A stretch of 64,000 nucleotides of DNA from Acidobacteriota bacterium (GTDB lineage Bacteria > Acidobacteriota > Polarisedimenticolia > Gp22-AA2): positions 1,974 through 65,973 of the forward strand of contig JBGPLZ010000002.1 of NCBI GenBank assembly GCA_041486695.1. Direction: 5' to 3'. Below, one piece after another: positions 6,618 to 49,655 of this stretch. Made by a program: the position numbers and the translations under genes. Position 1 is the first letter of the stretch. The number at the start of each line of letters is the position of its first letter. The notes beneath the pieces are model-generated. The model ran no database searches. It worked only from the letters and a program-made list of their open reading frames with translations, and was not told where the DNA came from.

Positions 6618-6683
6618 CGCTCTGCGGGTTTTTGTCAGGCCCGGAGAATCGGGATAAGCTCATCGTCCGGAGGTTCGAGCGAC

Positions 6684-19520: not shown

Positions 19521-19600
19521 GCGCATAGGAAGTTCAAGCTGAGATTTTAGGTCCGATAAGTTCTATTCCATCAGCCTCGGGTTCGACATCGGGCGGGAGA
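19521..19600. repeat. Intergenic repeat copy B (long form)
   Basis: GCGCATAGGAAGTTCAAGCTGAGATTTTAGGTCCGATAAGTTCTATTCCATCAGCCTCGGGTTCGACATCGGGCGGGAGA. It is about 93% identical to copy C over ~75 bp. It lies between the TonB-receptor stop and the lysyl-oxidase-like start. Confidence 0.65.
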
Positions 19601-19745
19601 GGCGCGCCCCGGCGTCAGCGCTCGTCACCGACTTCTCCCAGAGATCGGCAAACCGCTTCCGGCTCGACGAGAACGCGATGAGTCCGCAGCAGCAGGGTCG
19701 GGATCATGAGATAGGCGCCCTCGACGAGGTACCGTGCGGCCACGC

Positions 19746-28269: not shown

Positions 28270-29009
28270 GCGGGCGCTGGGGCGCGGGCGCGCCGCAGCC
28301 CGACGTCGTCCGGTTCCTGCAGGGGCCGCAGAAGCGCGGCTTCGAGCTGGCTCGGGCGCTGCGCATCTTCTGGGAGCTGATGCGCGGCTTCCGGGCGCTG
28401 CACTTCGTCGGCCCGTGCGTCACCGTCTTCGGCTCGGCCCGCTTTCAGGAGGATCATCCTCACTACGCGCTCGCCCGCGAGGTCGGGGCCCGCCTGGCCG
28501 GGGCGGGGTTCACCGTCATGACCGGCGGCGGCCCGGGCATCATGGAGGCCGCCAACCGCGGCGCCCGCGAGGCCGGCGGCCGCTCCATCGGCTGCAACAT
28601 CGAGCTGCCGCTGGAGCAGCAGCCCAACCCGTACCTCGACCGCTTCATCACCTTCCGCCACTTCTTCGTGCGCAAGGTGATGCTGGTGAAGTACTCCTAC
28701 GCCTTCATCGCCCTGCCCGGAGGGTTCGGCACGCTCGACGAGATCTTCGAGACCGCCACGCTGATCCAGACCGGGAAGATCAAAGAGTTCCCGCTCGTCC
28801 TGATCGGCCGCGACTTCTGGCGCCCGCTCCTCGAGTTCATGCGCGATCGTCTGGCCGCCGAGGGGACGATCGATCCGGTCGATCTCGACCGGTTTTTCGT
28901 GACTGATTCGGCCGAGCAGGCGGTCGCGGAGGTCACCCGCGTCGCGGTCGGCGCCTTCGGCCTGACCTATGGCCCGCGGGTGCGGCGGCGCTGGCTGCTG
29001 GGGGAGTGA
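28266..29009 (+). CDS. LOG-family protein (cytokinin riboside 5'-monophosphate phosphoribohydrolase / TIGR00730 Rossmann-fold nucleotide-binding)
   Basis: LOG signatures GGGPGIMEA and PGGFGTLDE. The ATG overlaps the stop of the upstream acyl-ligase gene (ATGA). Confidence 0.8.
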   Translation: MSGRWGAGAPQPDVVRFLQGPQKRGFELARALRIFWELMRGFRALHFVGPCVTVFGSARFQEDHPHYALAREVGARLAGAGFTVMTGGGPGIMEAANRGAREAGGRSIGCNIELPLEQQPNPYLDRFITFRHFFVRKVMLVKYSYAFIALPGGFGTLDEIFETATLIQTGKIKEFPLVLIGRDFWRPLLEFMRDRLAAEGTIDPVDLDRFFVTDSAEQAVAEVTRVAVGAFGLTYGPRVRRRWLLGE

Positions 29010-29280
29010 GGCCGCCGGACTCCGGTGGCGGCGTTGCGAATATTGCGTGGCGGTTTCCATCGTTCGGCAATTCTTGCGCCCGATGCATGATTTGCAGGAT
29101 GATAAGAGAGTTTCCGCCCGCTGCTTCGAGACAATTCGACCGCCTGCCAGAGAGGCTAATTGGGCCATAAATGCAGGGAAACGCCGTCCTCCGGTCGGCT
29201 GGAGTCGCCGAGGCCATCATTTTGGCGTGCGGTTTGCTCAGGGGGCAGTCGGGTCCACCTCCGGAGAAGGAGCGAGGAAT

Positions 29281-32200
29281 ATGAATCCAAGAAAATCAGG
29301 CCGCCTTCCCGTGAACTCCCGTTTCATGGCTGCGCTTGCCCTTGTCCTTCCCCTGTTGCTGGATTGGAGCACTGCCCGCGCGGCGGTCCAGTATCTGGGC
29401 AATGGCGCCCTGCAGAACGCCAATGGTGGCTGGGACCTGCCGGCGCAGGGCACCTGCCCGGCGGATCCCTCCAAGGTGACCCGTCCTGATTGTCTCGCGC
29501 TCAGGCTCAACATCGTGCAGGCGAGCTGCGTCGCTCCCAACCTCTCATGGACCACGGGCGGCGTCTGCAACGACCTGGTGAACACCACCCAGGGGGCCTG
29601 CCAAGCCGCGCCCGATCGCCTGTGGAACAGTGCTACCGGCGTCTGCGCGATCGTCATGAAGGACGACGACCGGAACAACGTCACCTGCGCGCTGCACGGC
29701 GGCACCTTCGTCGCGACGGGAACCTGCATCGGCGTCTGGATCATGCCCGCCCGTACCGCTTACACGCCCAACCTCCTCACCAGCAACAGCCCCGGAGATC
29801 AGTGTCTTCGGTGTCACAACGCCGAGACCCAGTACAACGGCACGCGGGTCCGGGACGTGGAGAACTTTCTGTACAGCGGGCACATGAACATGGCCAGGAA
29901 GGTGAAGGTCGGCATGCCATGGGGCGGTCCTCCTTTCAGCTGCAGCAGCGTTCTGTTCACCGACGAGCAGACGTGCGAGGAGAATGGCGCCCAGTGGAAC
30001 CCGACGGTCTATCCGTCCGACGATACCGGCAACACCTTCGACTGGATCAACGGCCGGATCAACGCCAGCGGTGGCCCGTACGATCTGGCCTGGATCTACG
30101 GTGACTGGCTGAGCCCGCTGCCGAGGGCGATCTACCGAGCTCCTGCCAGCTCGTCGCAGGTCTGCAGCGACCCGCGGTACTCCAACTCGACCTGCGTCGC
30201 GAACGGCGGGATCCTGATCAACAACGCCGGCGCCTCATATTCCTGCGCGCGGTGCCACACGACGGGCTGGACCAGCGATGCCACGATCAACACCGCGACG
30301 AACATCGATGGGAAGGACCCGGAGCTGTCGTTCCCCGGAATCACCTGGGACAGAAGCTCCAATGCCGGCTTCGGTGTGGTCAATCTTTCGGGCGGCGTGG
30401 CCAACGACCCCAACAAATATGCCTCCTGGGACCAGTACGGCATCGTGTGCACGAGGTGCCACAGCTCCGCGATCGACACGACCACCGGGACCGGCTCGCC
30501 GGCGCAGTACAGCGCGCCGGCCGGCATGTCGTCCCATCACAGCACCCTCACCGCCTCGGACGTCAGCAGCGGCGCCGGCTACTGCAGCGATTCACGCTTC
30601 ACCGCGCAGGCCCAGTGCGACGCCGCAGGCGCGGCTTGGTTGACGGCGTGCAGCATCGCCGGCGCGTGCAGCGCTCCGGCGTACACGACCTCCGGAAGCT
30701 GCCTGGCCAACGGCGGGAGTTGGACGAAGTACGACACCGCCGTGGCCTGCACGACGGCCGGCGGGACCTTCTATACCTCCTCCTGCAACCTCGCCGGTGT
30801 CTGCAATACTCTCAACCCCGCGCACTCGACCCAGGCGCTCTGCGAGGCGGCGGGCGGGCAGTGGGCCGCGGCCTCGGACATCGTCCGTTGCCTCGACATC
30901 CATGAGTACGGCAAGGAGAACGGCGTCGCGGCCTACACGGCCGCCGTCTGGACCGGTTCCAAAACGAACCGGGGCCCGATCATCACCCGCCTGTGCATGG
31001 ACTGCCACCGGCAGGAAACCTCCGGCATGCCCTACGCCAACGCCAGCGCCACCGCGGGGACCCTGGACACGGTCAACCCCGGTCTCTACCTCAAGGTCGG
31101 GCCGGCGCACAACACGGTCTCGTTCGTCAGCCATCCGCACGGCAACATGTTCCTGAACAGCCCGCACGGGAAATTCACCGGCACCTTCAATCAGATCGCG
31201 ACCGGGAAGTTCTCTTATGCCATGACCGGCGACTACAAGAGCTTCTTCCAGACCGATGGGGAGGCGGCCAACACCGGGAACGGCTGCACGGGATGTCATG
31301 ATGTCCACGAGAGCACGGTCCCCAAGACCAGCCCGTTCCCCGCCATTCGCGAAGAGTGCACGGAGTGCCACGCGAAGAACCTGAACGTGATCATGCATCC
31401 CCATGGCACCGGGACGCCGCTCGAGAACCTGGCGACCGATCCCGTCGAGTCCTGCGAAACGTGTCACATGCCCGGCGGACTGCACCTGTTCCGGGTCAAG
31501 GCGGATGCGGCCTACTCCACCTTCCCCAGCGGCGCTCTGACCGGCACGGTGAATGCCAACACCTCGCCGGACGGCACGTTCACCAACGCGGTCTGGGTCG
31601 ATATGGACCACTCGTGCGGCCAGTGCCACGGCGGCGGGACGGTGCAGGCCTCGACCACGGGCGGCATCCCGAACGGCAGCAAGGTGCTCACCGTCGCCGC
31701 CACGACCGGGTTCGCGGCCGGCGAACGGATTTCCGTCGCCGACGCCGGCAGCCTGAGCTATGACGACGTTGGTTCCGTCGTGAGTGGCGATTTCGAGACC
31801 TACATCGTCTCGGTGGTTCCGCCCGGCACTCTCAATCTGGCGGGCGCCGCGTCCGCCACCGTCAGCGGCAAAAGCGTTCTCCAGAACCCCACCAAGAACG
31901 GCGCGGGCTACATGACCAGGACGCAGCTGGCGAGCCTTGCGAAGGGCATCCACAACGACAAGCCGTACGTATCGTTCGGCGCCAAGCTGGGCAGCCCCAA
32001 CACGCTCACGGTCATGGTGGATGCGTCGGCCTCGACCTGCAGCGGCAGCAGCGCCAACTGCGACGCGTATGATTGGGACTGGAGCGACGGTTCGGCACAT
32101 GGTTCGGGCGTGACGGCGTCCCATACCTATGCAAGCGCGGGCGCAAAATCGATCACCCTGACCGTGGAGCAGTACGGGGTGAACGGGAATTCCCTCACCA

Positions 32201-32748
32201 GGACCGTCACGGTCTACGCTCCCGATGGCCCACCCGTTATCGGCAGCACCTGCACGTGGGATCCGAACACCTGGACCATGGCCCTGGCCGATACCTCGAC
32301 GGACACCGATGGCACGGGCGTGAAGCAGGTGACCGTCAACTGGGGCGATTACAGCCTACTCGCCAGTGACACGACGGCGCCTTTTGGGCCGTTCTCGCAT
32401 GCCTATCTCAATGTGGGCAGCTACGCGATCATCCACAAGGCGATCGACACCATAGGACAGCAGTCCACCGAGACGGCATGCACGGCGGCGCCGGCGTACT
32501 TTGCGATCGGCGGCACGGTGTTCGCGAGCGGTGGCATCACACCCGTGTCCTCGGCGGCCGTGACTCTGAGCAAGGGCGGCTCGGTCGTCAAGACGGTCTA
32601 TACCCTGGCCAACGGCACGTTCGCGGCTGGATTCCTGAAGCCGGGCACCTACACGCTCACGATCACCAAAGTCGGGTACACGTTCCCAGCGGTCGCGCCG
32701 ATCACCGTCGGACCGAGCAGTGCCGGAAACAACGTTTCGGCCATGTAG
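29281..32748 (+). CDS. Large secreted multiheme c-type cytochrome (8 CXXCH) with Cys-pair repeats, two PKD-like domains and a C-terminal CarbopepD_reg-like domain
   Basis: SD GGAGCGAGGAAT before the ATG. Signal peptide. Eight CXXCH sites: CLRCH, CARCH, CTRCH, CMDCH, CTGCH, CTECH, CETCH, CGQCH. Repeated C-x-A-x-GG-x-W/F...C modules. PKD-like segments (DWDWSDGSAHGSGVTASHTYASAGAKSITLTV; VNWGDYSLLASD...SHAY). C-terminal beta-sandwich-like region (GTYTLTITKVGYTF). 1155 aa. Confidence 0.75.
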   Translation: MNPRKSGRLPVNSRFMAALALVLPLLLDWSTARAAVQYLGNGALQNANGGWDLPAQGTCPADPSKVTRPDCLALRLNIVQASCVAPNLSWTTGGVCNDLVNTTQGACQAAPDRLWNSATGVCAIVMKDDDRNNVTCALHGGTFVATGTCIGVWIMPARTAYTPNLLTSNSPGDQCLRCHNAETQYNGTRVRDVENFLYSGHMNMARKVKVGMPWGGPPFSCSSVLFTDEQTCEENGAQWNPTVYPSDDTGNTFDWINGRINASGGPYDLAWIYGDWLSPLPRAIYRAPASSSQVCSDPRYSNSTCVANGGILINNAGASYSCARCHTTGWTSDATINTATNIDGKDPELSFPGITWDRSSNAGFGVVNLSGGVANDPNKYASWDQYGIVCTRCHSSAIDTTTGTGSPAQYSAPAGMSSHHSTLTASDVSSGAGYCSDSRFTAQAQCDAAGAAWLTACSIAGACSAPAYTTSGSCLANGGSWTKYDTAVACTTAGGTFYTSSCNLAGVCNTLNPAHSTQALCEAAGGQWAAASDIVRCLDIHEYGKENGVAAYTAAVWTGSKTNRGPIITRLCMDCHRQETSGMPYANASATAGTLDTVNPGLYLKVGPAHNTVSFVSHPHGNMFLNSPHGKFTGTFNQIATGKFSYAMTGDYKSFFQTDGEAANTGNGCTGCHDVHESTVPKTSPFPAIREECTECHAKNLNVIMHPHGTGTPLENLATDPVESCETCHMPGGLHLFRVKADAAYSTFPSGALTGTVNANTSPDGTFTNAVWVDMDHSCGQCHGGGTVQASTTGGIPNGSKVLTVAATTGFAAGERISVADAGSLSYDDVGSVVSGDFETYIVSVVPPGTLNLAGAASATVSGKSVLQNPTKNGAGYMTRTQLASLAKGIHNDKPYVSFGAKLGSPNTLTVMVDASASTCSGSSANCDAYDWDWSDGSAHGSGVTASHTYASAGAKSITLTVEQYGVNGNSLTRTVTVYAPDGPPVIGSTCTWDPNTWTMALADTSTDTDGTGVKQVTVNWGDYSLLASDTTAPFGPFSHAYLNVGSYAIIHKAIDTIGQQSTETACTAAPAYFAIGGTVFASGGITPVSSAAVTLSKGGSVVKTVYTLANGTFAAGFLKPGTYTLTITKVGYTFPAVAPITVGPSSAGNNVSAM

Positions 32749-32781
32749 GCGATGCGACACCAGGACATCATTGGAGGGACA

Positions 32782-33615
32782 ATGAACAGACTCGTGCGGG
32801 CTGGGCTGGTTGTGGCTGTCGGAGCATGCCTCGCGTCCTACGTCATGGCCTACACCGGCTCGTATACGCCGGGAGCGGGCCTCAACGACACGGTCCATGA
32901 TCTCGGAACGGCCAAGAACGGGATGAACTATGTGGCGATCCCGGCGGACCCTCAGCAGAGGACCTGCATCTTCTGCCACGCCCCGCACAACACCTACAAG
33001 CTGAGTCCGGCCAATGGCGGCCCCGGCGCGCCCGTCGGCGGCGGCCCGCAGGCTCCAGACGCCTTCGATTACCTGCCCCTGTGGAACCATGAGCTGACCG
33101 GCAACTATGCCTCCTACACCATGTACCAGAACGGACCGGGCGCGCCTCAGATCGGCGCGAAGGCCTCCCAGGCGATTCAGAGCGGCATGGTCCCGGGCAG
33201 CGTCTCCCTGCTCTGCCTCAGCTGTCACGACGGAAGCGTGGCCGTGAACTCGTACGGCAACGCCTCGCAGCTCACTGCGTCGCAGAGCAGCGGCGGCGGC
33301 ACGATCGGCGCCGCGTACCTGATCGGCAAGGACAACTATCTGGGGAACCACCATCCGATCGGCTTCAGCTACGACGCGGCGCAGTCGGTGGACCCCGAGA
33401 TCCGCGACGCCAATGTCGCCCAGCTGGGAGGCGCCGGGGCGGTGCGGGATCACCTGTACGGTGCGTCCAGCTCGATGATGGAGTGCGCGACGTGCCATTC
33501 GGTTCACAACAAGAGCAACACCGGTGAGACCCTCCTCTGGAGGAGCGATACGGCCAGCCGGCTCTGCCTGACCTGCCATGACAAGGGCACCGATCCGGGC
33601 GTGGTGACTCCGTAG
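32782..33615 (+). CDS. Tetraheme c-type cytochrome, doubled-CXXCH family
   Basis: SD GGAGGG 4 nt before the ATG. Signal peptide. CIFCHAPHN, CLSCHDGS, CATCHSVHN, CLTCHDKG. The N-terminus is homologous to the N-terminus of the cytochrome at 38710..40569. Confidence 0.7.
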   Translation: MNRLVRAGLVVAVGACLASYVMAYTGSYTPGAGLNDTVHDLGTAKNGMNYVAIPADPQQRTCIFCHAPHNTYKLSPANGGPGAPVGGGPQAPDAFDYLPLWNHELTGNYASYTMYQNGPGAPQIGAKASQAIQSGMVPGSVSLLCLSCHDGSVAVNSYGNASQLTASQSSGGGTIGAAYLIGKDNYLGNHHPIGFSYDAAQSVDPEIRDANVAQLGGAGAVRDHLYGASSSMMECATCHSVHNKSNTGETLLWRSDTASRLCLTCHDKGTDPGVVTP

Positions 33616-33830
33616 TTCGAGAACTGAGTGAACCCGGCGAGAAGGGAATGGCCTCCATCCCCTTCTCGCCTTTTGCGGCCATCCCTTCCTCCACCCTCCG
33701 CGCCATCGCGAGATGGTACAATTCCGCTTCTTGCGATCCTCCGCGCTGGCCGGGACTTTTGAGACGCAACTCCGGCCGCCCGGGCCATCCCACCTTCGAT
33801 CCATGGCTGAAACATGTGGCGGGCGGAATC

Positions 33831-35027
33831 ATGAGACTTCGCGAGGTGGAGGTGGCTGGAGCGCCGCAGATCGGGGAAAGACGAACGAGGCGAACGGGCG
33901 CCTTCGGAGCGATCGTCCCCGCGGTCCTGGCGCTCCTGGCGGCGGCCTGCGCCACGCCCCAGGTCAAGAAGGCGGCCTCCGTCTACTTCCCGCCCTCGCC
34001 GGAGCTCCCCCGTATCCAGTACCTGACATCATTCACCGGTCTGAAAGACGTCGAGGAACAGTCTGCGTTCGACAAGTTCGTCGTGGGCGAGAAACAGGAT
34101 GTGAAGCTGGACAAGCCCTATGGCGTCGCCATCTACGATGGGAAGATCTATGTCTGCGACACCAACGCCACGGTCATCGTTTTCGATCTGAAGGGCAGGA
34201 CCTTTGGCACGCTGAAGGGGGCGGCGGGCCCCGGACAGCTCCTCGGGCCCGTCAACATCAGCATCGAGCGGGATGGCACCAAGTACGTGGCCGACCCCGT
34301 TCGCGGCCAGGTCGTCGCCTTCGACCGGGATGACGGGTACCTCAAAGCCTATGGCGAGCCTGGAGCATGGAGACCGGTTGATGCCGTGCCGTTCCACGAC
34401 CGGCTCTATGTTGCCGACCCCTCGACCGGCCTGGTCAAGGTGTTTGACATCGCCAGCGGCGAGCTCCTCAAGGCGATAGGGGACAAGGGGGAACCCTCCG
34501 AGCGGCTCGACCGGCCCACCAACCTGGCCTTCGACTTCGAAGGGTACCTCTACGTGACCGATGTGGGGCGATTTCAGGTCGTCAAGTTCGACCGGGATGG
34601 TCATTTCAAGGCGACATTCGGAAGGCCCGGCGACAACCTTGGACACTTTGCCCGGCCCAAGGGCATCGCGCTTGATCGTGAAGGTCGTCTCTACGCGGTC
34701 GACGCGTCTTTCAACAATGTCCAGGTCTTCAGCGAGGGAGCGCGGCTGCTGATGTTCTTCGGAGGAGCGGGGGATCAGCCTGGAAGCTTCCTGCTGCCCG
34801 CCAAGGTCGTGATCGACTACGACAACCTGAAGTACTTCCAGAAATACGTCCAGCCCGATTTCGAGATTCAGTATCTGGTCCTGGTGACGAGTCAGTTCGG
34901 ACCCCGACTGGTGAATGTCCTGGCCTATGGGCGGCAGAAGGGGGCCAGGTACCCAAGCGATGAAGAGATCTTGAAGCTGATGGAACAGAAGCGGCAGAAG
35001 GAAATGGAGAAAACACCGAAGGAGTGA
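33831..35027 (+). CDS. NHL-repeat six-bladed beta-propeller (lipo)protein
   Basis: Signal peptide with a lipobox-like LLAAAC. Repeated NHL-type blades (YGVAIYDGKIYVCDT, YVADPVRGQVVAFD, LYVADPSTGLVKVFD, LYVTDVGRFQVVKFD, LYAVDASFNNVQVF). Confidence 0.65.
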   Translation: MRLREVEVAGAPQIGERRTRRTGAFGAIVPAVLALLAAACATPQVKKAASVYFPPSPELPRIQYLTSFTGLKDVEEQSAFDKFVVGEKQDVKLDKPYGVAIYDGKIYVCDTNATVIVFDLKGRTFGTLKGAAGPGQLLGPVNISIERDGTKYVADPVRGQVVAFDRDDGYLKAYGEPGAWRPVDAVPFHDRLYVADPSTGLVKVFDIASGELLKAIGDKGEPSERLDRPTNLAFDFEGYLYVTDVGRFQVVKFDRDGHFKATFGRPGDNLGHFARPKGIALDREGRLYAVDASFNNVQVFSEGARLLMFFGGAGDQPGSFLLPAKVVIDYDNLKYFQKYVQPDFEIQYLVLVTSQFGPRLVNVLAYGRQKGARYPSDEEILKLMEQKRQKEMEKTPKE

Positions 35028-35064
35028 TCCGAAAGATGCCCCGGAGTCTGCCCCTCGAGATCCC

Positions 35065-35601
35065 ATGAGAACCCGGACGGTGGCGATGTTGGTGTGCGTG
35101 GTGGCCGCGCTGACGGCCGGCTGTAACGCCACGACGCGCCACAAGGTTCTCGCGGCGCTGTTCGACGGCGTTCCACCACTCAGAGAGACCGTCCGGTCCG
35201 AGACGAACCAGGGCGCCGAAGGCACGGGGGCCGTGGGGCCGCGGCCGGCGACGCTCTACGAGCATGGACCCTACGCGGCGCGCTTGTGCAGCGCCTGTCA
35301 CGACGCGGCGGCCACCAATGCCCTCGTCGCGCCGAAAGAGACGCTGTGCTTACGCTGCCACGACCTGGGGCTGGTCAAGAGATACGTGCATGGTCCTCTC
35401 GCCTCGGGAGGCTGCCTCGTCTGCCACGATCCGCACAGCTCCCAGTATCAACACCTTCTGGTATCGGAATCCGCCGGCTTCTGCCTGCACTGCCACGACC
35501 GGCAGGACGTGGCGAGAATCGAAGCACACGGCGGCTCGGCGGACAGCTGCACGTCCTGCCATGATGCCCATATGTCGGACAGAAGGTACTTGTTGAAGTG
35601 A
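35065..35601 (+). CDS. Pentaheme c-type cytochrome (c7/c3-like), probable periplasmic lipoprotein
   Basis: Signal peptide and lipobox-like LTAGC. CSACHD, CLRCHD, CLVCHDPHSSQYQHLL, CLHCHD, CTSCHDAHMSD. Confidence 0.7.
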   Translation: MRTRTVAMLVCVVAALTAGCNATTRHKVLAALFDGVPPLRETVRSETNQGAEGTGAVGPRPATLYEHGPYAARLCSACHDAAATNALVAPKETLCLRCHDLGLVKRYVHGPLASGGCLVCHDPHSSQYQHLLVSESAGFCLHCHDRQDVARIEAHGGSADSCTSCHDAHMSDRRYLLK

Positions 35602-35611
35602 AGGCGGGACT

Positions 35612-37639
35612 TTGCGTATCAAGAATGGTCTCATCCTGATGGCAGTGATCGGCGTCGTGAGCGACGTCGCAGTCGCCGGGGGATCCGACTTCTTGCCCAG
35701 GCCGACGAGGAACGGGGCGTTCGTCGACCTGTTCACCTCCTACGAGCGCGACGACAATCCCGGCAGCGTACGGTCGTTCGGCTGGCACGACACCTTCTTC
35801 AAGGAAAAGCTGACCTTCTTTTCGAACGGATACTTTTATCATCCGCGGTTTCTCCAGTACCAGGTGTCCGTGGCCGGGGCCCTGAAGCAGGAGAGGTTCG
35901 AAGCCTCCTATCTCAACCCCCAGGACTGGCGGCATGGAGAGGGCGTGGAGTATGACGGCCGGTTGTTCTTCCTTCCCGAACACCCCTACAATCTCGAGCT
36001 CTACGCGCTTCGGTACGAGCCCCTCTTCAAGACTCAGGCCGCGACGGAGCACGACAGCCTTCAATCGGGATGGGGAGCGTTGTTCCAGTACCGACAAAGG
36101 CCGTGGTTCTCGCACGCGAAATTGAGCGACAGCACCACCCGATCGGGGATCCTGACCTCGAATGTCAGGAGGCTCGGTCTCGACGGCGAGTACGTCACTC
36201 GATTAGGGACCGCAGGCCAGTTCTCCCTGAATGCCTCCGTGAACCCCACGCACTTCTCGAACTCCCAGGGACTCGACGGGCGCTCGACGGAATTCCTGTT
36301 CGGAAACCTTATAAACCTGAAGCGCGTCCGGCTGAACTCGAGCCTCACCCGGAACACGTCGGACCAGGACAATGGTCTCAGCGGGCGGTTTGAGAACGAT
36401 CAGTTCACCTGGTACGAGCTTCTGAGCCTTTACTTCCCGTTGAACTTCCGCAGCGATCTTTCCTTTCGCCGGCAGGAGAATGAGAGCACGATCCCGGACA
36501 CCCTCACTTCGATCGATCGCACCTTGTCCGATACGAGTGAGCAGGTCCAGCTCGACATCGTGCACCGGTTGTTCCGGAGCCTCGACACCACCTACAGGTT
36601 CCTGGACATTTCGCGTGATTCCTCCGGCGGGGAATCGACCTTCCGGTCGAATTCACTCTTCGTCAACTACACCAAGATGATCCCGGACGGACGAGTCCTC
36701 GCGGGCGTGAACCTGGGAAGGAGCCGAAGCGACAATAAGGGCCGGGCGGATGTCGTGGATGAGCCCCATCCCGGAACCGCGGTGCCGGGAGTGTTCACCC
36801 TGGCGCAGCAGAATGCCGATCCGCGCAGCGTCGCCGTGTTCATCAAGTCGCCGCTGTCGCCATTTCAGGCGATTCTCCTGGTCGAAGGCCCGCACTACGT
36901 GGTGACGCCGGTGCTGAACACCCTGCAGATCACCATGCTGGACCTGCCACCGCAGTTCACCGTGCCGGGAACCTATGACTTGTTCGTCGATTACTCGCTG
37001 TCGACGGGCGAGTTCGGGCTGGGGACGGACAACGTCGGCTGCAACCTGAGCGTCGAGCTGCTGAATACCATGTTGACCCCGTACTACAGTTATGCGGCGA
37101 TCCGTTCGACGGTCGAGTCCGGGTCGTTTCCCGGGACTCCTCTTGATTCGACGACGCACACGGTCGGTCTGCGGTTTCACCAGGGACCGCTGCGGGCGAC
37201 CGGGGAATACCAGAACCTCGATTGGGACATCAGCCCTTATCAGGCCTGGAGAAGCGAGGTCCAGTACATCAGCTCGCTGAATCCGAGGACCAGGGTCTAC
37301 CTGAGCGGAGCCTACGTCAACAAGTACTACTCCCACGGCACCTCGGTGGCCTTCAGCGAGCCGTACACCGATGAGAACGCCACCGCCTTCGGAAGCATCC
37401 AGAGGCAGTTCGCTCCGCGCAGTCTGGTTCTGTCCGGGGGAGGGTCGTTCACGCGCCTGCGAGGCCGGGTGGACGGCAATGCGTACACGCTGAACGGCTC
37501 GCTGAGCTGGAAGATCGGCCGGTTGAGTCTGGCGGCCGGCGCGAGCGCGTACAAATCCGATACGCGCGGATTCAATGCCTTCTCGAGCGACCGTTTCCAC
37601 GAATACTATTACGTCTCTCTTCGGAGGGAGTTCTTTTGA
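35612..37639 (+). CDS. Outer-membrane beta-barrel (porin-like) protein, candidate porin partner of the adjacent cytochromes
   Basis: TTG start in the track with a plausible signal peptide (RIKNGLILMAVIGVVSDVAVA-GG). Alternating amphipathic beta-strand pattern throughout. C-terminal ...YYYVSLRREFF with a terminal Phe, typical of OM beta-barrels. The 675-aa size is comparable to MtrB/MtoB-class porins. Confidence 0.5.
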   Translation: MRIKNGLILMAVIGVVSDVAVAGGSDFLPRPTRNGAFVDLFTSYERDDNPGSVRSFGWHDTFFKEKLTFFSNGYFYHPRFLQYQVSVAGALKQERFEASYLNPQDWRHGEGVEYDGRLFFLPEHPYNLELYALRYEPLFKTQAATEHDSLQSGWGALFQYRQRPWFSHAKLSDSTTRSGILTSNVRRLGLDGEYVTRLGTAGQFSLNASVNPTHFSNSQGLDGRSTEFLFGNLINLKRVRLNSSLTRNTSDQDNGLSGRFENDQFTWYELLSLYFPLNFRSDLSFRRQENESTIPDTLTSIDRTLSDTSEQVQLDIVHRLFRSLDTTYRFLDISRDSSGGESTFRSNSLFVNYTKMIPDGRVLAGVNLGRSRSDNKGRADVVDEPHPGTAVPGVFTLAQQNADPRSVAVFIKSPLSPFQAILLVEGPHYVVTPVLNTLQITMLDLPPQFTVPGTYDLFVDYSLSTGEFGLGTDNVGCNLSVELLNTMLTPYYSYAAIRSTVESGSFPGTPLDSTTHTVGLRFHQGPLRATGEYQNLDWDISPYQAWRSEVQYISSLNPRTRVYLSGAYVNKYYSHGTSVAFSEPYTDENATAFGSIQRQFAPRSLVLSGGGSFTRLRGRVDGNAYTLNGSLSWKIGRLSLAAGASAYKSDTRGFNAFSSDRFHEYYYVSLRREFF

Positions 37640-37658
37640 TGCGCGCGCCAGGATCGCC

Positions 37659-38729
37659 ATGATGAGGACACGGCTCGAAAAAATATCCGCCAGAGGGTGG
37701 ATGGCGGCGTCGGGTGCGCTCCTCGGCCTCCTCTCGGGATGCGTGTCGGCCTGGACGCTGCGTACGGCGCAGCCGGGAGTTTCCCTGCAGTGGCCCTATC
37801 AACCGAATGCGGCCAAGATCACTTACGTCGAGTCCTTGACGGGCTTCTCGGAGCACCGGCGATCGGCCGCCGTCTTGAAGACCTTCGTCTATGGCAAGGA
37901 CAAAGAGGACGTGAACGGATTCATCCTGCCCGTAGCGGTCGCCACCGGACCCGATGGACGGATCGCAGTCGCAGACATGGGCCGGCGGTGCGTCCATCTG
38001 TTCGTGCCGGCCGGACAGACCTATCTGCGCCTCGACGGGTCCAAGAAGGAAAAGATCGGCTCGCCCGTGGGAGTGATCTTCGACGACGAAGACCGTCTCT
38101 ATGTCGCGGATTCGGCAGGCAAGGTGTTCGCGTTCGCCGGAGATGGTCGCCATCTTTTCACCCTGGAGAAGACTGAGGCCGGCCCGTTGCAGCGGCCGAC
38201 CGGCCTCGCCTACAGCCCCGTCACGAAGCTCGTGTATGTCGTCGACACCCTTGCCAACCGCGTGCATGCTATGAACACGAGGGGGGACGTCGTTTTCTCG
38301 TTCGGCGAGCGCGGGACGGGCGGCGGCGGGTTCAACTTCCCCACCCATATCTTCTGGTCGTCGGGGAAGCTGTACGTCGCCGATTCGCTCAATTTCAGGA
38401 TCAGCATCTTCGACGAGACGGGAAAGCCTCTGAGCGTCTTCGGCCGGCACGGCGACGGGTCGGGGGACCTGGCGCTGCCCAAAGGGATCGCCGTCGACAA
38501 GGACGGCATCATCTACGTCGCGGACAGCATGTTCGACAACGTTCAGTTGTTCGATGATCGCGGCGAGTTCCTCCTGACCCTCGGCAGGAGAGGGGTGGAC
38601 TTCGGCGAGATGTGGTTGCCCTCGGGCATTCATATCAGCGACAAGGACGAGCTCTATGTCTGTGACACCTACAACCGGCGCGTGCAGGTCTTTCACATCA
38701 CGGAGCGGTATGGACATGGCGGGTCCTGA
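37659..38729 (+). CDS. NHL-repeat beta-propeller lipoprotein (paralog of 33831..35027)
   Basis: SD AGGA 5 nt before the ATG. Canonical lipobox LLSGC. NHL blades (IAVADMGRRCVHLF, LYVADSAGKVFAF, VYVVDTLANRVHAM, LYVADSLNFRISIFD, IYVADSMFDNVQLFD, LYVCDTYNRRVQVF). Confidence 0.7.
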   Translation: MMRTRLEKISARGWMAASGALLGLLSGCVSAWTLRTAQPGVSLQWPYQPNAAKITYVESLTGFSEHRRSAAVLKTFVYGKDKEDVNGFILPVAVATGPDGRIAVADMGRRCVHLFVPAGQTYLRLDGSKKEKIGSPVGVIFDDEDRLYVADSAGKVFAFAGDGRHLFTLEKTEAGPLQRPTGLAYSPVTKLVYVVDTLANRVHAMNTRGDVVFSFGERGTGGGGFNFPTHIFWSSGKLYVADSLNFRISIFDETGKPLSVFGRHGDGSGDLALPKGIAVDKDGIIYVADSMFDNVQLFDDRGEFLLTLGRRGVDFGEMWLPSGIHISDKDELYVCDTYNRRVQVFHITERYGHGGS

Positions 38730-40569
38730 GTCCACGACAGCTCGTCGTCTGGTCGCGAGGCTTGTTCTAGGCCTGGCGTGCTCCTGCCTCGGAGCGGGAC
38801 TCCCGGCCCAGACGACCTCGGACATGGTGAACACGAAGCACAATCTGTCGGTCTCGGGCACGGGCTCGATCCGGGCCCTGACGGAGACGCGGATCTGCAT
38901 CTTCTGCCACACGCCGCACAACGCTGCGCCCCTGTCGCCGTTGTGGAACAAGGATCTCGGACCCGAGGTTTACATCGTCTACGCCAGTCCCACGCTGAAG
39001 GCCGGTCCGCTCCCGCAGCCCACGGGCCCGACGAAACTGTGCCTCAGTTGTCACGATGGCACGATCGCCATGGGCGGCGTCCTGAACCCGGCCGCGGGCA
39101 TCACGATGGCCGGCAGTGACCGGTTCGCCCCGGGCAGCCTCTCCGATTTCGGTCTCGATCTGTCCGGGCACCATCCCGTGTCGTTTCCGTATTCCAGCGC
39201 TCTTCCGAACGCGGAGCTGGCGCCGGTGCCTCCGCCCGATCTCGTGTTCGGAGGCGCCGACGAAGTGCACTGCATCACCTGCCACGATCCGCACAATGAT
39301 CAGTACGGACGATTCCTGGTCAAGGACAATCACTACTCGGCGCTATGCACCACCTGTCACCAGATGACCGGGTGGGTCGGCTCGGCCCATGCGACCTCGA
39401 CCGCGTCGATGGTGGGCATCCTCCCGAGGCCTCCCAAGACCTGGCCCACCTACAGCCAGCTGAACGAATGGGGATGTGAAGCGTGCCACACGCCCCACTT
39501 CGCCCCGACCGCGGAACAGCTGCTCAATTTCACCGCGGCGCCGCCGTCCCCGTTCTCGTGCACCACGGCCGGGTGCCACACATCCGATCCGGCCCCGGTG
39601 CACACCCCGGCCACTCCGGGCCCCTCGGGATCGGGCGTCTCCATGGTCTCCGGGAGGGCCGACATCGCGCACCAGATCGGCAAATATTCGGCGCACCGGG
39701 AGAATCCCGGCGGGATGCCGACGGCGTTTCGGAGCGCGGCAGGAGCCTACCGTTCGGGGCGGCTCGGCGTGGGTTGCGCCGACTGTCACAATCCGCATCT
39801 GGTCAATGACGTGAGGACCGAGGCACCCCATGCCTCAGGCATGCTCAAGGGCGTGAGCGGAGTCGACCGGAATGGCGGGAGGGTGGCCTCGGTCACCTAT
39901 GAATACGAGGTGTGCTTCAAGTGCCACGGCGATGACAGCCCGGATCTCGACTACGTGCCTCGCGTGCTCACCGTCACGAACACGCGCCTGGCCTTCGACC
40001 CGTCCAATCCTTCCTATCACCCGGTGGTCGCCATGGGAAGGACCCTGAATGTGCCGAGCATCCCGTCGCAGTTCGAGCCGACGATGAGCGCGTCGCAGCA
40101 GATCTATTGCACCGCCTGTCACGCCGACGATGAGGGCGGGTCGCGAGGACCGCATGGGTCCTCGTTCGCCCCGATTCTGAAGCAACGCTATGAGACGACG
40201 GACAATACGGCGGAAAGCTACGACAACTACGCCCTGTGCTACCGGTGCCACGACCGGGCCAGCATTCTCAGCGACGCAAGTTTCGGGAAGAAGATGATCC
40301 GGACCACGCCCTCCGGGGGCGGGCACAGCGGACATCTCGCGGCGGGCGCGCCGTGCTCGGCATGTCACGACCCGCACGGTGTGTACGAGGGCGGTGCGGC
40401 GGTCCCGTCGGGGACCGGTTCCCACACCCACCTGATCAACTTCGACAGCCGGATCGTCCTGCCGCTGCCGGGGAAGCAGCTCCCGGTCTTCCAGGATGCC
40501 GGTCTGTTCTCAGGCAACTGCACTCTCGTGTGCCACGGTGTGACCCACGACGCAACGTCCTACCCCTGA
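38710..40569 (+). CDS. Multiheme c-type cytochrome (10 CXXCH plus 2 variant CX3-4CH sites), doubled-CXXCH N-terminus
   Basis: Start overlaps the end of the upstream NHL gene. Signal peptide. CIFCH, CLSCH, CITCH, CTTCH, CEACH, CADCH, CFKCH, CTACH, CYRCH, CSACH, plus CTTAGCH and CTLVCH. Confidence 0.75.
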   Translation: MDMAGPESTTARRLVARLVLGLACSCLGAGLPAQTTSDMVNTKHNLSVSGTGSIRALTETRICIFCHTPHNAAPLSPLWNKDLGPEVYIVYASPTLKAGPLPQPTGPTKLCLSCHDGTIAMGGVLNPAAGITMAGSDRFAPGSLSDFGLDLSGHHPVSFPYSSALPNAELAPVPPPDLVFGGADEVHCITCHDPHNDQYGRFLVKDNHYSALCTTCHQMTGWVGSAHATSTASMVGILPRPPKTWPTYSQLNEWGCEACHTPHFAPTAEQLLNFTAAPPSPFSCTTAGCHTSDPAPVHTPATPGPSGSGVSMVSGRADIAHQIGKYSAHRENPGGMPTAFRSAAGAYRSGRLGVGCADCHNPHLVNDVRTEAPHASGMLKGVSGVDRNGGRVASVTYEYEVCFKCHGDDSPDLDYVPRVLTVTNTRLAFDPSNPSYHPVVAMGRTLNVPSIPSQFEPTMSASQQIYCTACHADDEGGSRGPHGSSFAPILKQRYETTDNTAESYDNYALCYRCHDRASILSDASFGKKMIRTTPSGGGHSGHLAAGAPCSACHDPHGVYEGGAAVPSGTGSHTHLINFDSRIVLPLPGKQLPVFQDAGLFSGNCTLVCHGVTHDATSYP

Positions 40570-40627
40570 TCCCCCTCCCAGGCTTGGGAACGGAAGTCGC
40601 CGTGGCGGGACCGGGAGAGGGCCGCCG

Positions 40628-41983
40628 TCAATGGGGTTTGACGGCGGGTTTCGGCGCGCCGGGCTTGCGGCCCTGGCTCTGCCGATCGTAGTTCTGCGGC
40701 CGGTGACAACCCGGCGTACACCCGCCTCCCGTATCGGTCTTGACGAACTTGATCGGGAGTTTCCATTTCCCGAATGACACGCTCTCCGCGACGAGCTTGG
40801 GGGCACTGCTGCCGTGAAGCTCGTGGCACAACGTGCAGCTGCGGCCTTTCTGTCTGTTGTTGACGTGCAGAAAGTGGAGGTTCCTCTCGCCGTCCCGGAA
40901 GCCGGTCGCGAACGAGGTGTCCGGGTACTGGACCATGTCGCGCTTATGACAGCTGAAACATAGCGCGAACTCCGTACCGGTGTACGGCACGTAGGCGGTC
41001 GTGGGGAATTCCTTGACGAGCAGCTTCGGGTACTGGCTGCCGTGCGGGTCGTGACAGGGAGTGCACCTCCCCTCGCTGATCGGGCGATGAAGCGTGGTCA
41101 TGGCATTGGTGATGACGGACGTGTGACAACCGAGACAGAGGACTCTTTCCTGCTTCAGCAGCAGCTTCGCGTTGTCGCTGGCATGTGGCGAATGGCACGC
41201 GATGCAGGCCTTGTCGTCCTGGACCGCGGCGTGGACGACGCTCGCCTTCTGGAGTTTGTCTGCGATCGCGTCGTGGCATTGGAAGCACAGCCGGGCCCCT
41301 TCGTCGGACAGCAGCTTGGGGTGCGCGGTGCCGTGCGGATTGTGGCAGGAGGTGCAGCCTCCGGCCAGAGCCGGGTGCACGTTCTTCTTCTTCACCGCGG
41401 CCTGGACATCGAGATGGCACCCGAAGCACAGCTCGTCGCCCGGTTTCACCAGCAGAGACTTGACGTCGGACTCGTGCGGGGTGTGGCACGCGGTGCAGTC
41501 TCCCGCCGCGACCGGGCCGTGAGGGTACTTTGAGCTCCCCTGCCCGGCGTGACAGGACTCGCAGAGATCCTTCATCGGCTGCACCAGCAGCTTGGGCTGA
41601 TCCGAGGCGTGCGGGTCGTGGCACGTGGTGCACATCCCTTCCTTGGCGGGGGGATGGACGTGACTCTTCTTCCCGAACGCGTCGTGGCAGGTGGTGCAGA
41701 GCTGCGGGGGCTCCTGAAGGAGCTTGAAGGTCTTGACGCCCTTCCTGGGGTGCGGCGTCGCGGTGGATTCATGACAGCTGTCGCAGGATTCCACCGGCGG
41801 GTGCACCGTCTTGCCGCGCACGAGCGTCGCGTGACACTGGGCAGCCACGCACCCGTTCTGCGCCACGGCGTCGGGCCCGGGAAGAAACAGGCTGCTCATC
41901 ACGAGGGTGGCGATCCGAAGACCGAAACGGAACCGCCGTCGATCGGCCGACCGGGAGTTGTCTCTCATCGTCGCAGGGTTCAC
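40628..41983 (-). CDS. Multiheme c-type cytochrome (13 CXXCH plus 2 variant sites), c7-like repeat polymer
   Basis: Signal peptide. Repeated units C-x-x-C-H-x-P-H-x-S/T-x(3)-K-L-L, for example CTTCHDPHASDQPKLL, CTACHTPHESDVKSLL, CIACHSPHASDNAKLL, CTPCHDPHGSQYPKLL. Variants CVAAQCH and CTPGCH. Convergent with the upstream cytochrome, 58-bp gap. Confidence 0.75.
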   Translation of the reverse strand: MNPATMRDNSRSADRRRFRFGLRIATLVMSSLFLPGPDAVAQNGCVAAQCHATLVRGKTVHPPVESCDSCHESTATPHPRKGVKTFKLLQEPPQLCTTCHDAFGKKSHVHPPAKEGMCTTCHDPHASDQPKLLVQPMKDLCESCHAGQGSSKYPHGPVAAGDCTACHTPHESDVKSLLVKPGDELCFGCHLDVQAAVKKKNVHPALAGGCTSCHNPHGTAHPKLLSDEGARLCFQCHDAIADKLQKASVVHAAVQDDKACIACHSPHASDNAKLLLKQERVLCLGCHTSVITNAMTTLHRPISEGRCTPCHDPHGSQYPKLLVKEFPTTAYVPYTGTEFALCFSCHKRDMVQYPDTSFATGFRDGERNLHFLHVNNRQKGRSCTLCHELHGSSAPKLVAESVSFGKWKLPIKFVKTDTGGGCTPGCHRPQNYDRQSQGRKPGAPKPAVKPH

Positions 41984-42188
41984 CGACCCCCGCAGGTTCC
42001 TCGCGACCTGGGGTCCTGACGAAGTTTATCCTGATGCGGGTCTCGACGATAGTCCGTTCCTGTCGATCGGACGTCGGAGATCATGTCGCACAGAGCATCG
42101 ATCCACCGCGACGAAGCCACCGAGTGTCGGTTGCTCTATCATGGGGCCGCATCGCGGTTCGTCGGAATGGGGAGCGCTTCACAGCGTC

Positions 42189-48655: not shown

Positions 48656-48691
48656 ACGAATTGCGGCGCAGCGTCGCCGGCGGAGAGAACG

Positions 48692-49654: not shown

Positions 49655-49655
49655 C

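Follow-up and report, generated by a model that had tools for sequence, protein, structure and literature searches.

What is a run of five multiheme cytochromes, two beta-propeller lipoproteins and a large barrel doing in this Acidobacteriota genome? A first-pass annotation had taken it for a porin-cytochrome conduit. We consider it reasonably probable that the block is a self-contained cassette which makes, exports and electrically feeds an extracellular filament of the OmcE type, with the Geobacter omcE cluster as a divergent relative.

Eight genes and five multiheme cytochromes

The block spans positions 29281-41983 of the window, i.e. the whole stretch of 64,000 nucleotides that was analysed, and contains eight adjacent genes, here called A to H; the first seven lie on the forward strand and H on the reverse strand. 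All eight ORFs were confirmed at their annotated coordinates, as were the heme motif counts of the five c-type cytochromes: 8 in A, 4 in B, 5 in D, 12 in G (10 CXXCH, one CX3CH and one CX4CH) and 15 in H (13 CXXCH, one CX3CH and one CX4CH). Each motif is kept in 22-36 orthologs, and Pfam detects Paired_CXXCH_1 in every cytochrome of the block. Among six-frame ORFs of at least 80 aa in the whole 64-kb window, only A, B, D, G and H contain at least two CXXCH, so that their clustering is not due to chance. The ORFs of B, C, F and G are present as annotated but, according to gene calls in the closest relative, their true starts are probably later than those of the longest ORFs, at 32782, ~33831, ~37659 and ~38710, respectively.

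By Pfam, no gene beyond A-H, such as an OscH-like folding factor, was found inside the block, and the 64-kb window contains no hexaheme ORF. The flanking genes have no relation to electron transfer; no glycosyltransferase block is adjacent, the nearest sugar genes being 4.8 kb away. As the annotation presupposed, the cytochromes carry signal-like N-termini. Judging from the N-termini, Sec signal peptides would export all eight products to the periplasm, where the hemes would be attached.

The same inventory could be read as a periplasmic redox system in which multiheme proteins act on nitrogen or sulfur compounds and which has nothing to do with extracellular electron transfer. We regard this as extremely remote: its one hint is a sub-threshold NCBIfam similarity of the NrfB/NrfH type (15-26 bits against cut-offs of 134-184), but a motif scan of the block cytochromes detected neither CXXCK nor another catalytic-heme signature, and NrfA- and HAO-type matches were absent from the Pfam and NCBIfam searches. 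The outer-membrane barrel, the three lipoproteins and the PKD/Ig domains point to the cell surface, and the genes conserved next to the cassette in other genomes encode a histidine kinase and MtrB/PioB rather than functions of the nitrogen or sulfur cycle. Neither the window nor 37 related loci showed a nitrite- or hydroxylamine-type enzyme or a nitrogen-cycle context, which the annotation had named as arguments against itself. The enzyme reading is effectively refuted.

An OmcE-family tetraheme and a larger relative

B (32782-33615, longest ORF from 32752; 277 aa, the length also called in its orthologs) is a tetraheme cytochrome of the OmcE family, a homology which the annotation had overlooked for both B and G. 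Over its full length it matches the OmcE filament of Geobacter sulfurreducens (PDB 7tfs, E=1.8e-14) and the OmcE bundle of Desulfuromonas soudanensis (PDB 9yuq, E=2.9e-15; bioRxiv 10.1101/2025.10.22.684050), and BLASTP aligns it with G. sulfurreducens OmcE at 25% identity (9e-21). The eight heme ligands show no variation in 62 B-type and Geobacter-type sequences: both the four CXXCH and the four distal His are retained throughout. In comparison with OmcE, B is ~45 aa longer, with a ~23-residue insert before the PLWN motif plus a C-terminal tail. An AF2 model of B was of too low a quality (pLDDT 52.6) to judge its fold and gave no Foldseek match. B has 2087 homologs at E<=1e-3 and is the most conserved component across loci (60-79% identity). 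Its sequence makes it a candidate polymerising filament subunit, which would polymerise head to tail, its N-terminal His (TVHDL motif) ligating the heme of a neighbour as in OmcE. For this step, the homology and the ligands are what we observed; polymerisation, that is filament formation by B, is what we infer from them. No filament of the B-type family has been seen. OmcE-like tetrahemes are widespread and not all of them need polymerise (bioRxiv 10.1101/2025.10.22.684050).

The non-coding gap of 271 nt that follows a LOG-like gene (29010-29280, forward strand) is likely the promoter and leader of an A-B transcription unit. A Shine-Dalgarno-like GGAGAAGGAG lies ~10 nt upstream of the ATG of A at 29281; neither an Rfam riboswitch nor a match to the sigma-70 consensus was found in this region. 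Directly 3' of B, we observed a terminator-like hairpin (33636-33674, forward strand) made of an 11-bp G+C-rich stem and an inner helix extension, followed by TTTT; its dG is -28.3 kcal/mol (z=-2.9) and none of 200 shuffles was as stable. Since its T run is just 4 T long, it escaped a simple terminator-consensus scan. Almost all of the 26 loci that were folded have an equivalent hairpin and T run downstream of the B ortholog, with two different stem sequences, and the hairpin also accompanies B into inverted A-B units, for example in L024 and L027. A canonical terminator also directly follows G. sulfurreducens omcE, and a terminator at this place in both is what would be expected for a major-subunit gene. 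The hairpin is probably a leaky terminator which sets a high subunit:machinery ratio: A and B would form one transcription unit, and partial termination after B would leave the subunit in excess over the machinery.

G (38710-40569, ORF opening at 38656) is a 12-heme cytochrome of ~619 aa. Residues ~36-236 of its 637-aa ORF form a complete OmcE-like tetraheme module, to which is fused a C-terminal extension of ~400 aa with 8 hemes and without a solved relative. As a single sequence G matches PDB 7tfs with E=5e-23, the profile of its orthologs matches OmcE with E=1.6e-35 over residues 9-231 of 232, and the module is 31% identical to OmcE (1.5e-27) and keeps all eight ligands. A set of 31 orthologs preserves the 12 heme motifs as well as 28 His, and G was found in each locus having enough sequence. 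The Geobacter omcE locus has no equivalent of G, and OmcE operons are stated to encode no tip-like OmcE relative (bioRxiv 10.1101/2025.10.22.684050).

It could be G, rather than B, that polymerises, with an insulated OmcE-like core and an 8-heme extension exposing its hemes along a "leaky" wire; B would in that case serve as a minor subunit, a cap or a periplasmic partner. By both identity and E-value, OmcE is nearer to the module of G than to B, the profile match and complete set of ligands of this module speak for the same reading, and a new family of wires has been proposed for OmcE-like proteins whose additional hemes are exposed. However, G stands at the distal end of the machinery operon, a 400-aa appendage on each subunit would need to fit the OmcE helical packing, and it is B that compares with OmcE in size and heme count, is best conserved and is followed by the terminator typical of a major subunit. 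We hold polymerisation of G to be highly improbable. If B is the polymer, G is a candidate adaptor at the base or tip of the filament: its OmcE-like module would join the B polymer via the same heme-His contact, and its 8-heme extension would tie the wire, as a base, to the barrel and the periplasmic side or, as a tip, to the substrate.

Propellers, barrel and the other cytochromes

C (33831-35027; ORF opening at 33648, start candidates ATG 33831 or GTGs 33846/33852, ortholog called at 378 aa) and F (37659-38729; ORF opening at 37575) are six-bladed NHL beta-propeller lipoproteins and, as had been proposed, paralogs (31% identity over 323 aa, E=1e-28). Pfam detects NHL and DUF5128 in C (5e-10 and 2.5e-10; lipobox LLAAAC) as well as in F (9e-25 and 1e-14; lipobox LLSGC). 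Both match the NHL lipoprotein encoded in the omcE cluster of G. sulfurreducens. For C the alignment covers 321 aa at 29% identity (E=3e-37) and takes in the N-terminal PPxPExPRI motif; for F it covers 317 aa at 31% (E=1e-39). The annotation had set the propellers apart as non-canonical, but they are a stated hallmark of omcE clusters (bioRxiv 10.1101/2025.10.22.684050). As outer-membrane lipoproteins, C and F might dock or chaperone subunits at the barrel.

Structure prediction for E (35612-37639, 675 aa) yielded a confident large outer-membrane barrel of ~30 strands, in agreement with the annotation, with a ~60-residue beta-rich insert at residues ~392-452; of the solved structures, MtrB aligns with E over the largest number of residues. 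By sequence, E has no MtrB_PioB match in Pfam, hhalign against a real MtrB/PioB was negative, and no similarity to the barrel of the Geobacter omcE cluster was detected (675 vs 752 aa). Since these last two barrels show no sequence relationship, their equivalence is only positional and architectural. The model makes E a candidate secretion pore, anchor or socket for cytochromes. In the filament cassette it would supply a very wide pore, required because the subunits would already be heme-loaded and folded. The roles of barrel and propellers are hypotheses even in Geobacter (bioRxiv 10.1101/2025.10.22.684050).

D (35065-35601, 178 aa) is a pentaheme lipoprotein cytochrome (Paired_CXXCH_1 4.7e-22) with the lipobox LTAGC. 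Its 5 CXXCH, 5 further His and lipobox Cys20 are conserved in 36/36 orthologs, and it is 35% identical (E=2e-18) to a 330-aa 8-heme cytochrome of the Geobacter omcE cluster. D probably sits anchored in the outer membrane, facing the periplasm, and feeds in electrons. H (40628-41983, reverse strand; 451 aa), a periplasmic cytochrome, has 30 conserved His alongside its 15 heme motifs and shares 43% identity over 299 aa (E=1e-81) with the 11-heme cytochrome of 370 aa that starts the G. sulfurreducens omcE cluster, with which it has a C-terminal GGxCxxGCH motif in common. H is convergent with G in this window and on the strand of G in ~15 of 36 other loci. By homology with the omcE cluster, H and D would carry electrons between the inner-membrane/periplasmic pool and the filament base.

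In A (29281-32748, 1155 aa), 8 CXXCH are combined with Cys-rich repeats, two PKD-like Ig domains (Pfam PKD_4, 5e-9), the PKD having been recognized by the annotation, and a C-terminal CarboxypepD_reg domain (3e-8). All 8 CXXCH and the Cys pairs are conserved in 22 orthologs, A is the most variable component across loci (31-60% identity), and a search for a solved structural relative of its heme part returned none. A is probably a cell-surface or extracellular cytochrome, and its hemes, PKD/Ig domains and disulfide-rich repeats would suit a surface cytochrome or adhesin.

With these parts one could also build a classical porin-cytochrome conduit and no filament: E would sheathe D, H or the C-terminal part of G, electrons would reach G and A at the surface, and B would merely be a small soluble or peripheral tetraheme shuttle. 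The architecture of lipoprotein cytochrome, barrel and large cytochromes fits, and to this extent the extracellular electron transfer module proposed by the annotation stands; in addition, H resembles DmsE/MtrA-type decahemes, and similar Thermoanaerobaculia clusters were interpreted as conduits (PMC8528874). However, the DmsE/MtrA decaheme model gives H 162 bits, under its cut-off of 192, and E is not MtrB/PioB by sequence, which argues against the MtrAB/MtoAB type suggested by the annotation; some genomes have a true MtrB/PioB porin besides E. Such a conduit also leaves unexplained the top conservation of B, the conserved terminator after it and the five component types matching the omcE nanowire cluster. 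We consider it unlikely. Were the conduit through E to end in a wire, it would be compatible with the classical conduit and with the filament cassette alike.

Occurrence and relation to known systems

The order A-B-C-D-E-F-G-H recurs in 36 MAG loci and in one farmland-soil contig, i.e. the same cassette is found in uncultured soil and sediment bacteria of at least four lineages. Among the MAG hosts, the Binatia, Acidobacteriota and Myxococcales lie outside the five phyla of the OmcE preprint and the Nitrospirota within them (bioRxiv 10.1101/2025.10.22.684050). A genuine MtrB/PioB porin adjoins the cassette in five Thermoanaerobaculia loci and none is present in the window; electron passage and subunit export may therefore be separate jobs in those loci.

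The hosts also bear on the direction of electron flow. The same hardware could take up electrons instead of disposing of them, with Fe(II), reduced minerals, cathodes or partner cells as the source, a reading which concerns direction only and is compatible with a filament. Binatia, Acidobacteriota and soil hosts are not known iron reducers, and no obvious anaerobic-respiration genes were found in the window. Moreover, Desulfovibrio ferrophilus IS5 has clusters (DFE_448-451 and DFE_461-465) of 12-14-heme cytochromes co-expressed with NHL propellers, proposed to form an outer-membrane cytochrome complex and induced under electron-donor starvation (PMC5815863). On the other hand, OmcE has in Geobacter been connected with the reduction of Fe(III) oxides (PMC12307469), and nothing in the sequence sets heme potentials or electron direction; uptake seems to us possible, if somewhat unlikely. 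What cytochrome filaments do physiologically is under dispute (PMC11077965).

When compared by description, the D. ferrophilus clusters share with the block multiheme cytochromes and NHL-repeat beta-propellers; they differ in that electron uptake by a sulfate reducer was proposed, and a barrel or OmcE-like subunit does not figure in that description. MtrCAB/MtoAB/PioAB and Pcc (OmaB-OmbB-OmcB) likewise combine a barrel with periplasmic and surface multiheme cytochromes but have no NHL propellers or OmcE-family subunit. The MtrB barrel has 26 strands, whereas E is predicted to have ~30. In G. sulfurreducens, the osc (omcS-companion) cluster (Shen et al. 2025, Cell Chem Biol 32:239, as described in PMC13194489) resembles the block in associating a filament-subunit gene with periplasmic cytochromes and with dedicated genes of proposed folding, secretion and morphology functions; its OmcS-like subunit has 6 hemes, whereas that of the block is OmcE-like with 4. 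By analogy only, chaperone-usher pili (pap, fim) also combine a major-subunit gene, an attenuating terminator, a barrel with helpers and a distal subunit-like protein, a parallel raised in bioRxiv 10.1101/2025.10.22.684050 too.

The block differs from the Geobacter omcE cluster by two extra cytochromes, G and A, by its gene order and location, not between purHDE/resB-ccsB and ffh, and by having no adjacent glycosyltransferase genes. In common with it, the block has a tetraheme OmcE-family subunit with eight conserved heme ligands, an 11- to 15-heme periplasmic cytochrome, a D-related cytochrome, NHL lipoproteins, a barrel of ~700 aa that ends in FF and is encoded beside the subunit gene, and a terminator immediately 3' of that gene.

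Gene content and conservation of the cassette

The first-pass annotation had described a block of eight genes at 29281-41983 with five c-type cytochromes and two NHL propellers. We found the eight open reading frames and their heme motifs, and the Pfam assignments agree with this description. The reading frames themselves stand as annotated but some of the start codons do not, and belong further downstream according to the gene calls of the closest relative. On the forward strand, gene A (29281-32748) encodes a 1155-aa cytochrome with 8 CXXCH motifs and with PKD and CarboxypepD_reg domains (Pfam), followed by the cytochrome gene B (32752/32782-33615; 287/277 aa, 4 CXXCH), the NHL propeller gene C (33648/~33831-35027; NHL/DUF5128 in Pfam) and the cytochrome gene D (35065-35601; 178 aa, 5 CXXCH). 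Gene E (35612-37639, forward strand) encodes the barrel, a protein of 675 aa without heme motif whose C-terminal end is RREFF. It is followed on the same strand by the second NHL propeller gene, F (37575/~37659-38729; NHL/DUF5128 in Pfam), and by G (38656/~38710-40569), a cytochrome with 10 CXXCH motifs plus CX3CH and CX4CH. The last gene, H (40628-41983), lies on the reverse strand and encodes a cytochrome with 13 CXXCH plus CX3CH and CX4CH.

Pfam also detects Paired_CXXCH_1 in the cytochromes of the block, and a six-frame search of the 64-kb window gave no further open reading frame of at least 80 aa with two or more CXXCH motifs. All eight products have signal-like N-termini, and lipoboxes are present in C, D and F; C and F are paralogous to each other, at 31% identity (E=1e-28). 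When A was compared with the PDB sequences, we obtained PKD-domain matches from collagenases only. In alignments with 22-36 orthologs all the heme motifs are kept. There are 10 conserved histidines in D, 30 in H and 8 in B, in each case twice the number of hemes, implying bis-His coordination in these three proteins. A periplasmic enzyme of the nitrogen or sulfur cycle was also considered and rejected; heme motifs, family models and neighbours exclude it for practical purposes.

A scan of the GTDB species representatives with a profile of the barrel recovered 36 loci, all from MAGs or uncultured organisms, labelled as Candidatus Binatia, Acidobacteriota/Thermoanaerobaculia/Terriglobia, Myxococcales and Nitrospirota (Thermodesulfovibrionales, Dissulfurispiraceae), with a few unclassified. 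By phmmer against the six-frame open reading frames of these loci, the order A-B-C-D-E-F-G-H was recovered wherever the contig was long enough. H is found on either strand; L024 and L027 have the A-B pair in inverted orientation; L018, L019 and L029 carry duplicates of A or B in their upstream regions; and L016 has no B between A and C. Identity to the window is highest for B (60-79%) and C (57-79%), followed by G, H, F and D, and lowest for E (40-52%) and A (31-60%). The closest relative is a farmland-soil metagenome contig with the same gene order and a barrel that is 73% identical, and the family of B gives about 2000 matches in public metagenomes. We also observed a second B-like gene together with F-like and G-like genes past H in L002 (16658-22053), and an extra copy of part of the cassette in L034 (16616-17410, reverse strand).

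In at least 10 loci (L001, L002, L005, L011, L014, L021, L023, L026, L028 and L034) a histidine kinase gene (HisKA and HATPase_c) lies immediately upstream of the cassette, on the side of the A ortholog, for example at 3-2198 on the reverse strand of L001. This suggests two-component control of the cassette in the loci that bear the kinase. The window lacks this histidine kinase and has a LOG-like gene in the upstream place.

The genes flanking the cassette in the window are outside the system. Those upstream encode a TonB-dependent receptor, an MMPL protein, a methyltransferase, an AMP-binding/acyltransferase protein and the LOG-like protein, and those downstream an LMF1 homolog, a GST, a product without assignment and a PLP enzyme; elsewhere the window carries general metabolism. 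In none of the 36 loci does a homolog of a flank gene of the window stand beside the cassette. The G+C content is 0.615-0.665 in the block (28000-42000) against 0.67-0.72 in the flanks, the whole window being at about 68%. Taken together, the lower G+C and the non-recurring flanks suggest that the cassette may move between genomes by horizontal transfer. As to signs of a mobile element, we detected no tRNA and no flanking direct or inverted repeats beyond the paralogy of heme motifs. Two other genes of the window deserve mention. A 288-aa reading frame at 18484-19350 (reverse strand) matches the lysyl oxidase family (PF01186, E=7e-20), which is more familiar from animals, and adjoins a B12-binding radical SAM gene (16727-18220). 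Another, of 777 aa (6618-8951, forward strand), joins a VKOR (vitamin K epoxide reductase) membrane domain with two domains of thioredoxin fold, AhpC/TSA and Redoxin. Its product may form or reduce disulfide bonds in the periplasm, and as such could matter for the Cys-rich A.

B and G as members of the OmcE family

With 4 CXXCH motifs in 277 aa and a signal-like N-terminus, B falls within the range expected of a secreted filament subunit of the OmcE family (four CXXCH in ~220-280 aa). Searched against all PDB sequences, B gave significant multiheme matches only with 9yuq (E=2.9e-15) and 7tfs (E=1.8e-14), the latter being the OmcE filament of G. sulfurreducens (PMC12954529). The match to 7tfs extends over residues 5-232 of 232, hence over the full length. 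Going by its 16 chains and its molecule name, 9yuq is probably the D. soudanensis OmcE bundle of a recent preprint (bioRxiv 10.1101/2025.10.22.684050). Compared directly with G. sulfurreducens OmcE, B is 25% identical (BLASTP, 9e-21).

In an alignment of 62 B-type and Geobacter-type OmcE sequences, H39, H69, H191 and H242 of B are invariant together with the histidines of the four CXXCH motifs, and the invariant residues include the N-terminal histidine of the T-x-H-D/N-L motif. OmcE homologs are reported to keep four distal histidine ligands, among them an N-terminal one (bioRxiv 10.1101/2025.10.22.684050), and filaments of OmcE and of OmcS have one heme with a histidine ligand from the adjacent subunit (PMC9473688; PMC12954529). 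The same preprint uses as operational filter the presence, near the subunit gene, of genes for a large outer-membrane barrel and a beta-propeller lipoprotein (bioRxiv 10.1101/2025.10.22.684050); in the window E, C and F are all found within 5 kb, and likewise in the 36 loci. A heme-free AF2 model of B built from the 62-sequence alignment was poor, as expected for a multiheme protein (pLDDT 52.6), and had no Foldseek match in the PDB.

The N-terminal ~200 residues of mature G give stronger matches than B does to these two PDB entries (5e-23). A profile of 22 G orthologs aligns with residues 9-231 of the 232 of OmcE (1.6e-35), and residues 32-236 of G are 31% identical to G. sulfurreducens OmcE (BLASTP, 1.5e-27). 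The other ~400 residues of G, with 8 hemes, have no solved relative in the PDB. At the first heme motif (RxCIFCHxPHN), the DNA of B (32936-32991) and that of G (38867-38922) are 75% identical over 56 nt, which is a nucleotide-level trace of the paralogy of the two genes.

Both proteins carry an OmcE module, and G could be imagined as the polymerising unit. The transcription signals bear on this point. A G+C-rich hairpin followed by TTTT lies at 33636-33674, 20 nt past the stop codon of B, with a folding energy of -28.3 kcal/mol (z=-2.9; none of 200 shuffled sequences equally stable). Almost all of the 26 loci that were folded have a strong hairpin and a T run 3' of the B ortholog (z from -1.2 to -6.5, at or below -2 in 23), with two unrelated stem sequences, and the hairpin stays with B also in loci that carry A-B in the opposite orientation to C-H. 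Likewise, omcE of G. sulfurreducens precedes a textbook terminator. In pilin and fimbrial operons the major subunit is transcribed in excess over the assembly genes, so the terminator pattern lends independent support to B, and not G, as the bulk subunit; polymerisation of G appears to us quite improbable. A consensus scan, in which promoters and terminators were no commoner than in shuffled sequence, missed the hairpin after B because its T run has only four T. At the other end of the block, A is preceded by an intergenic region of 271 nt with a good Shine-Dalgarno sequence, and Rfam gave no significant match upstream of A or inside the block.

The barrel E and the proposed assembly

The AF2 model of E, obtained with a 34-sequence alignment, has a pLDDT of 84.3 and, by DSSP, 30 long strands. 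A conserved beta-rich insert of ~60 residues (residues ~392-452) separates predicted strands 18 and 19 and may act as a plug or docking domain. From simple barrel geometry, a barrel of 30 strands would have a lumen of ~40 Å, through which a tetraheme subunit already folded around its hemes, or a thin filament, could pass. The width is relevant since the periplasm is where hemes are attached to c-type cytochromes. In sequence, E represents an unnamed family. It had no match in Pfam, NCBIfam or PADLOC, and the family comprises 267 word-index matches and 1123 representatives at 50% identity (E<=1e-3), 216 of which are below 1e-30.

Of the conduit types proposed by the first-pass annotation (Pcc/Ext or MtrAB/MtoAB), the MtrAB/MtoAB type is not borne out for the barrel: E has no PF11854 match in Pfam, and hhalign against the PF11854 protein of L028 gave a probability of 0.3%. 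Nor did an MtrA-type decaheme emerge, since H, with 15 heme motifs in place of 10, scores 162.3 bits with the DmsE/MtrA model (TIGR03508), whose cut-off is 192.2. As to the Pcc/Ext conduits of Geobacter, the GSU2203-family decaheme model of NCBIfam gives H 127 bits, far short of its cut-off of 325. In comparison with the osc (omcS-companion) nanowire machinery, which comprises an OmcS-like hexaheme subunit and the components OscD-H, the window has no six-heme reading frame, and inside the block there is no additional gene, for instance for an OscH-like folding factor. Five Thermoanaerobaculia MAG loci (L014, L016, L028, L029 and L031) have an MtrB/PioB porin gene just past the cassette, downstream of the H ortholog; in L028 it lies at 17571-20162 on the forward strand (PF11854, E=7e-100). 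These five genomes have both the OmcE-like cassette and a classical Mtr-type conduit, and the window has no MtrB/PioB gene.

Beyond homology and synteny, we infer the following roles. B would polymerise into an OmcE-type wire, E would be a wide outer-membrane pore or socket with C and F as its lipoprotein helpers, and H and D would feed electrons in the periplasm. G would serve as a built-in adaptor, its OmcE module joining the B polymer and its 8-heme extension bridging to the barrel at the base or to the substrate at the tip, and A would be a surface cytochrome or adhesin. We propose, tentatively and with considerable doubt, a heteromeric wire in which G nucleates or caps the B polymer and plugs it into the ~30-strand barrel with the assistance of the two propeller lipoproteins. 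A plain porin-cytochrome conduit, ending without a wire, seems to us unlikely. It would not account for the homology to OmcE, for the rank of B in conservation or for the terminator. The wire model takes in the conduit idea, since both allow a conduit through E with a wire at its end. Electron uptake in place of export is a question of direction; clusters with NHL propellers and multiheme cytochromes were proposed to serve uptake in D. ferrophilus IS5 (PMC5815863).

If the heteromeric wire is true, it would give a first genetic handle on the initiation, anchoring and electron feeding of nanowires, with an assembly logic similar to that of chaperone-usher systems, in Binatia, Acidobacteriota, Myxococcales and Nitrospirota. 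These lineages are abundant and uncultured in soil and sediment and are not known for long-range electron transfer. Were the cassette functional, the known range of wire-based extracellular electron transfer would come to include soil phyla that are abundant and uncultured.

Comparison with the Geobacter omcE cluster

An OmcE query reconstructed from PDB alignments matched the G. sulfurreducens protein at 98% identity and led to its locus (L037). There, purHDE is followed by a triheme cytochrome and ResB/CcsB, then by two multiheme cytochromes (370 aa with 11 hemes, 330 aa with 8 hemes), an NHL lipoprotein of 361 aa and omcE itself; next come a protein of 752 aa without Pfam match and with a C-terminal FF, and then glycosyltransferases. 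The two multiheme cytochromes that accompany omcE are homologous to H and D: H is 43% identical to the 11-heme protein over 299 aa (BLASTP, 1e-81), and D is 35% identical to the 8-heme protein (2e-18), of which it covers only the C-terminal half. The Geobacter NHL lipoprotein is homologous to C (29%, 3e-37) and to F (31%, 1e-39), in both cases over ~320 aa. H and its 11-heme counterpart have in common an unusual C-terminal GGxCxxGCH motif, and C, F and the Geobacter lipoprotein an N-terminal PPxPExPRI outside the NHL repeats.

The two systems differ in that the window adds A and G to the inventory and swaps the barrel family. No relation between E and the barrel of the Geobacter cluster was found by hhalign (probability 0.8%), BLASTP or HMM, an HMM of 240 members of the E family scoring -2.3 bits with the latter; as the sequences have no detectable relation, their equivalence is only positional and architectural. 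Clusters of the Geobacter/Desulfuromonas type have purHDE/resB-ccsB on one side and ffh on the other, and a glycosylation block often comes after them. In L037 purHDE/ResB and glycosyltransferases are indeed present, whereas the flanks in the window are lipid-metabolism, LOG, LMF1 and GST genes. A group of sugar genes (GT2 glycosyltransferase, NAD-dependent epimerase/dehydratase and polysaccharide deacetylase; 46767-50609) lies 4.8 kb downstream of the block with unrelated genes between. Geobacter-type omcE clusters often precede glycosylation genes, and a tie to this group is only a candidate.

OmcE-type clusters with barrel and propeller neighbours have been described before, and homologs are reported from Thermodesulfobacteriota, Pseudomonadota, Aquificota, Campylobacterota and Nitrospirota (bioRxiv 10.1101/2025.10.22.684050), and clusters of multiheme cytochromes and barrels were noted in Thermoanaerobaculia without an OmcE assignment (PMC8528874). 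A full-text search of one literature collection found no paper in which OmcE is connected with Binatia, Binatota, Thermoanaerobaculia or Acidobacteriota. New here are the eight-gene cassette, its distinct barrel family, the cytochromes G (an OmcE fusion) and A (with PKD), the conserved terminator after the subunit gene and the host range.

The secretion, anchoring, start and stop of nanowires are an acknowledged problem, and the conservation of the Geobacter machinery in other taxa is unclear (PMC12307469; bioRxiv 10.1101/2025.10.22.684050). An OmcE-like protein with extra hemes, as a candidate for the tip, is reported to be absent from the Geobacter operons (bioRxiv 10.1101/2025.10.22.684050), and G is a protein of this kind. 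The cassette is a compact and strongly syntenic second example beside Geobacter, which keeps the subunit, the propellers and the two putative feeder cytochromes. Its comparison with the Geobacter system shows which parts are indispensable and points to the complexes B-B, G-B and E-G.
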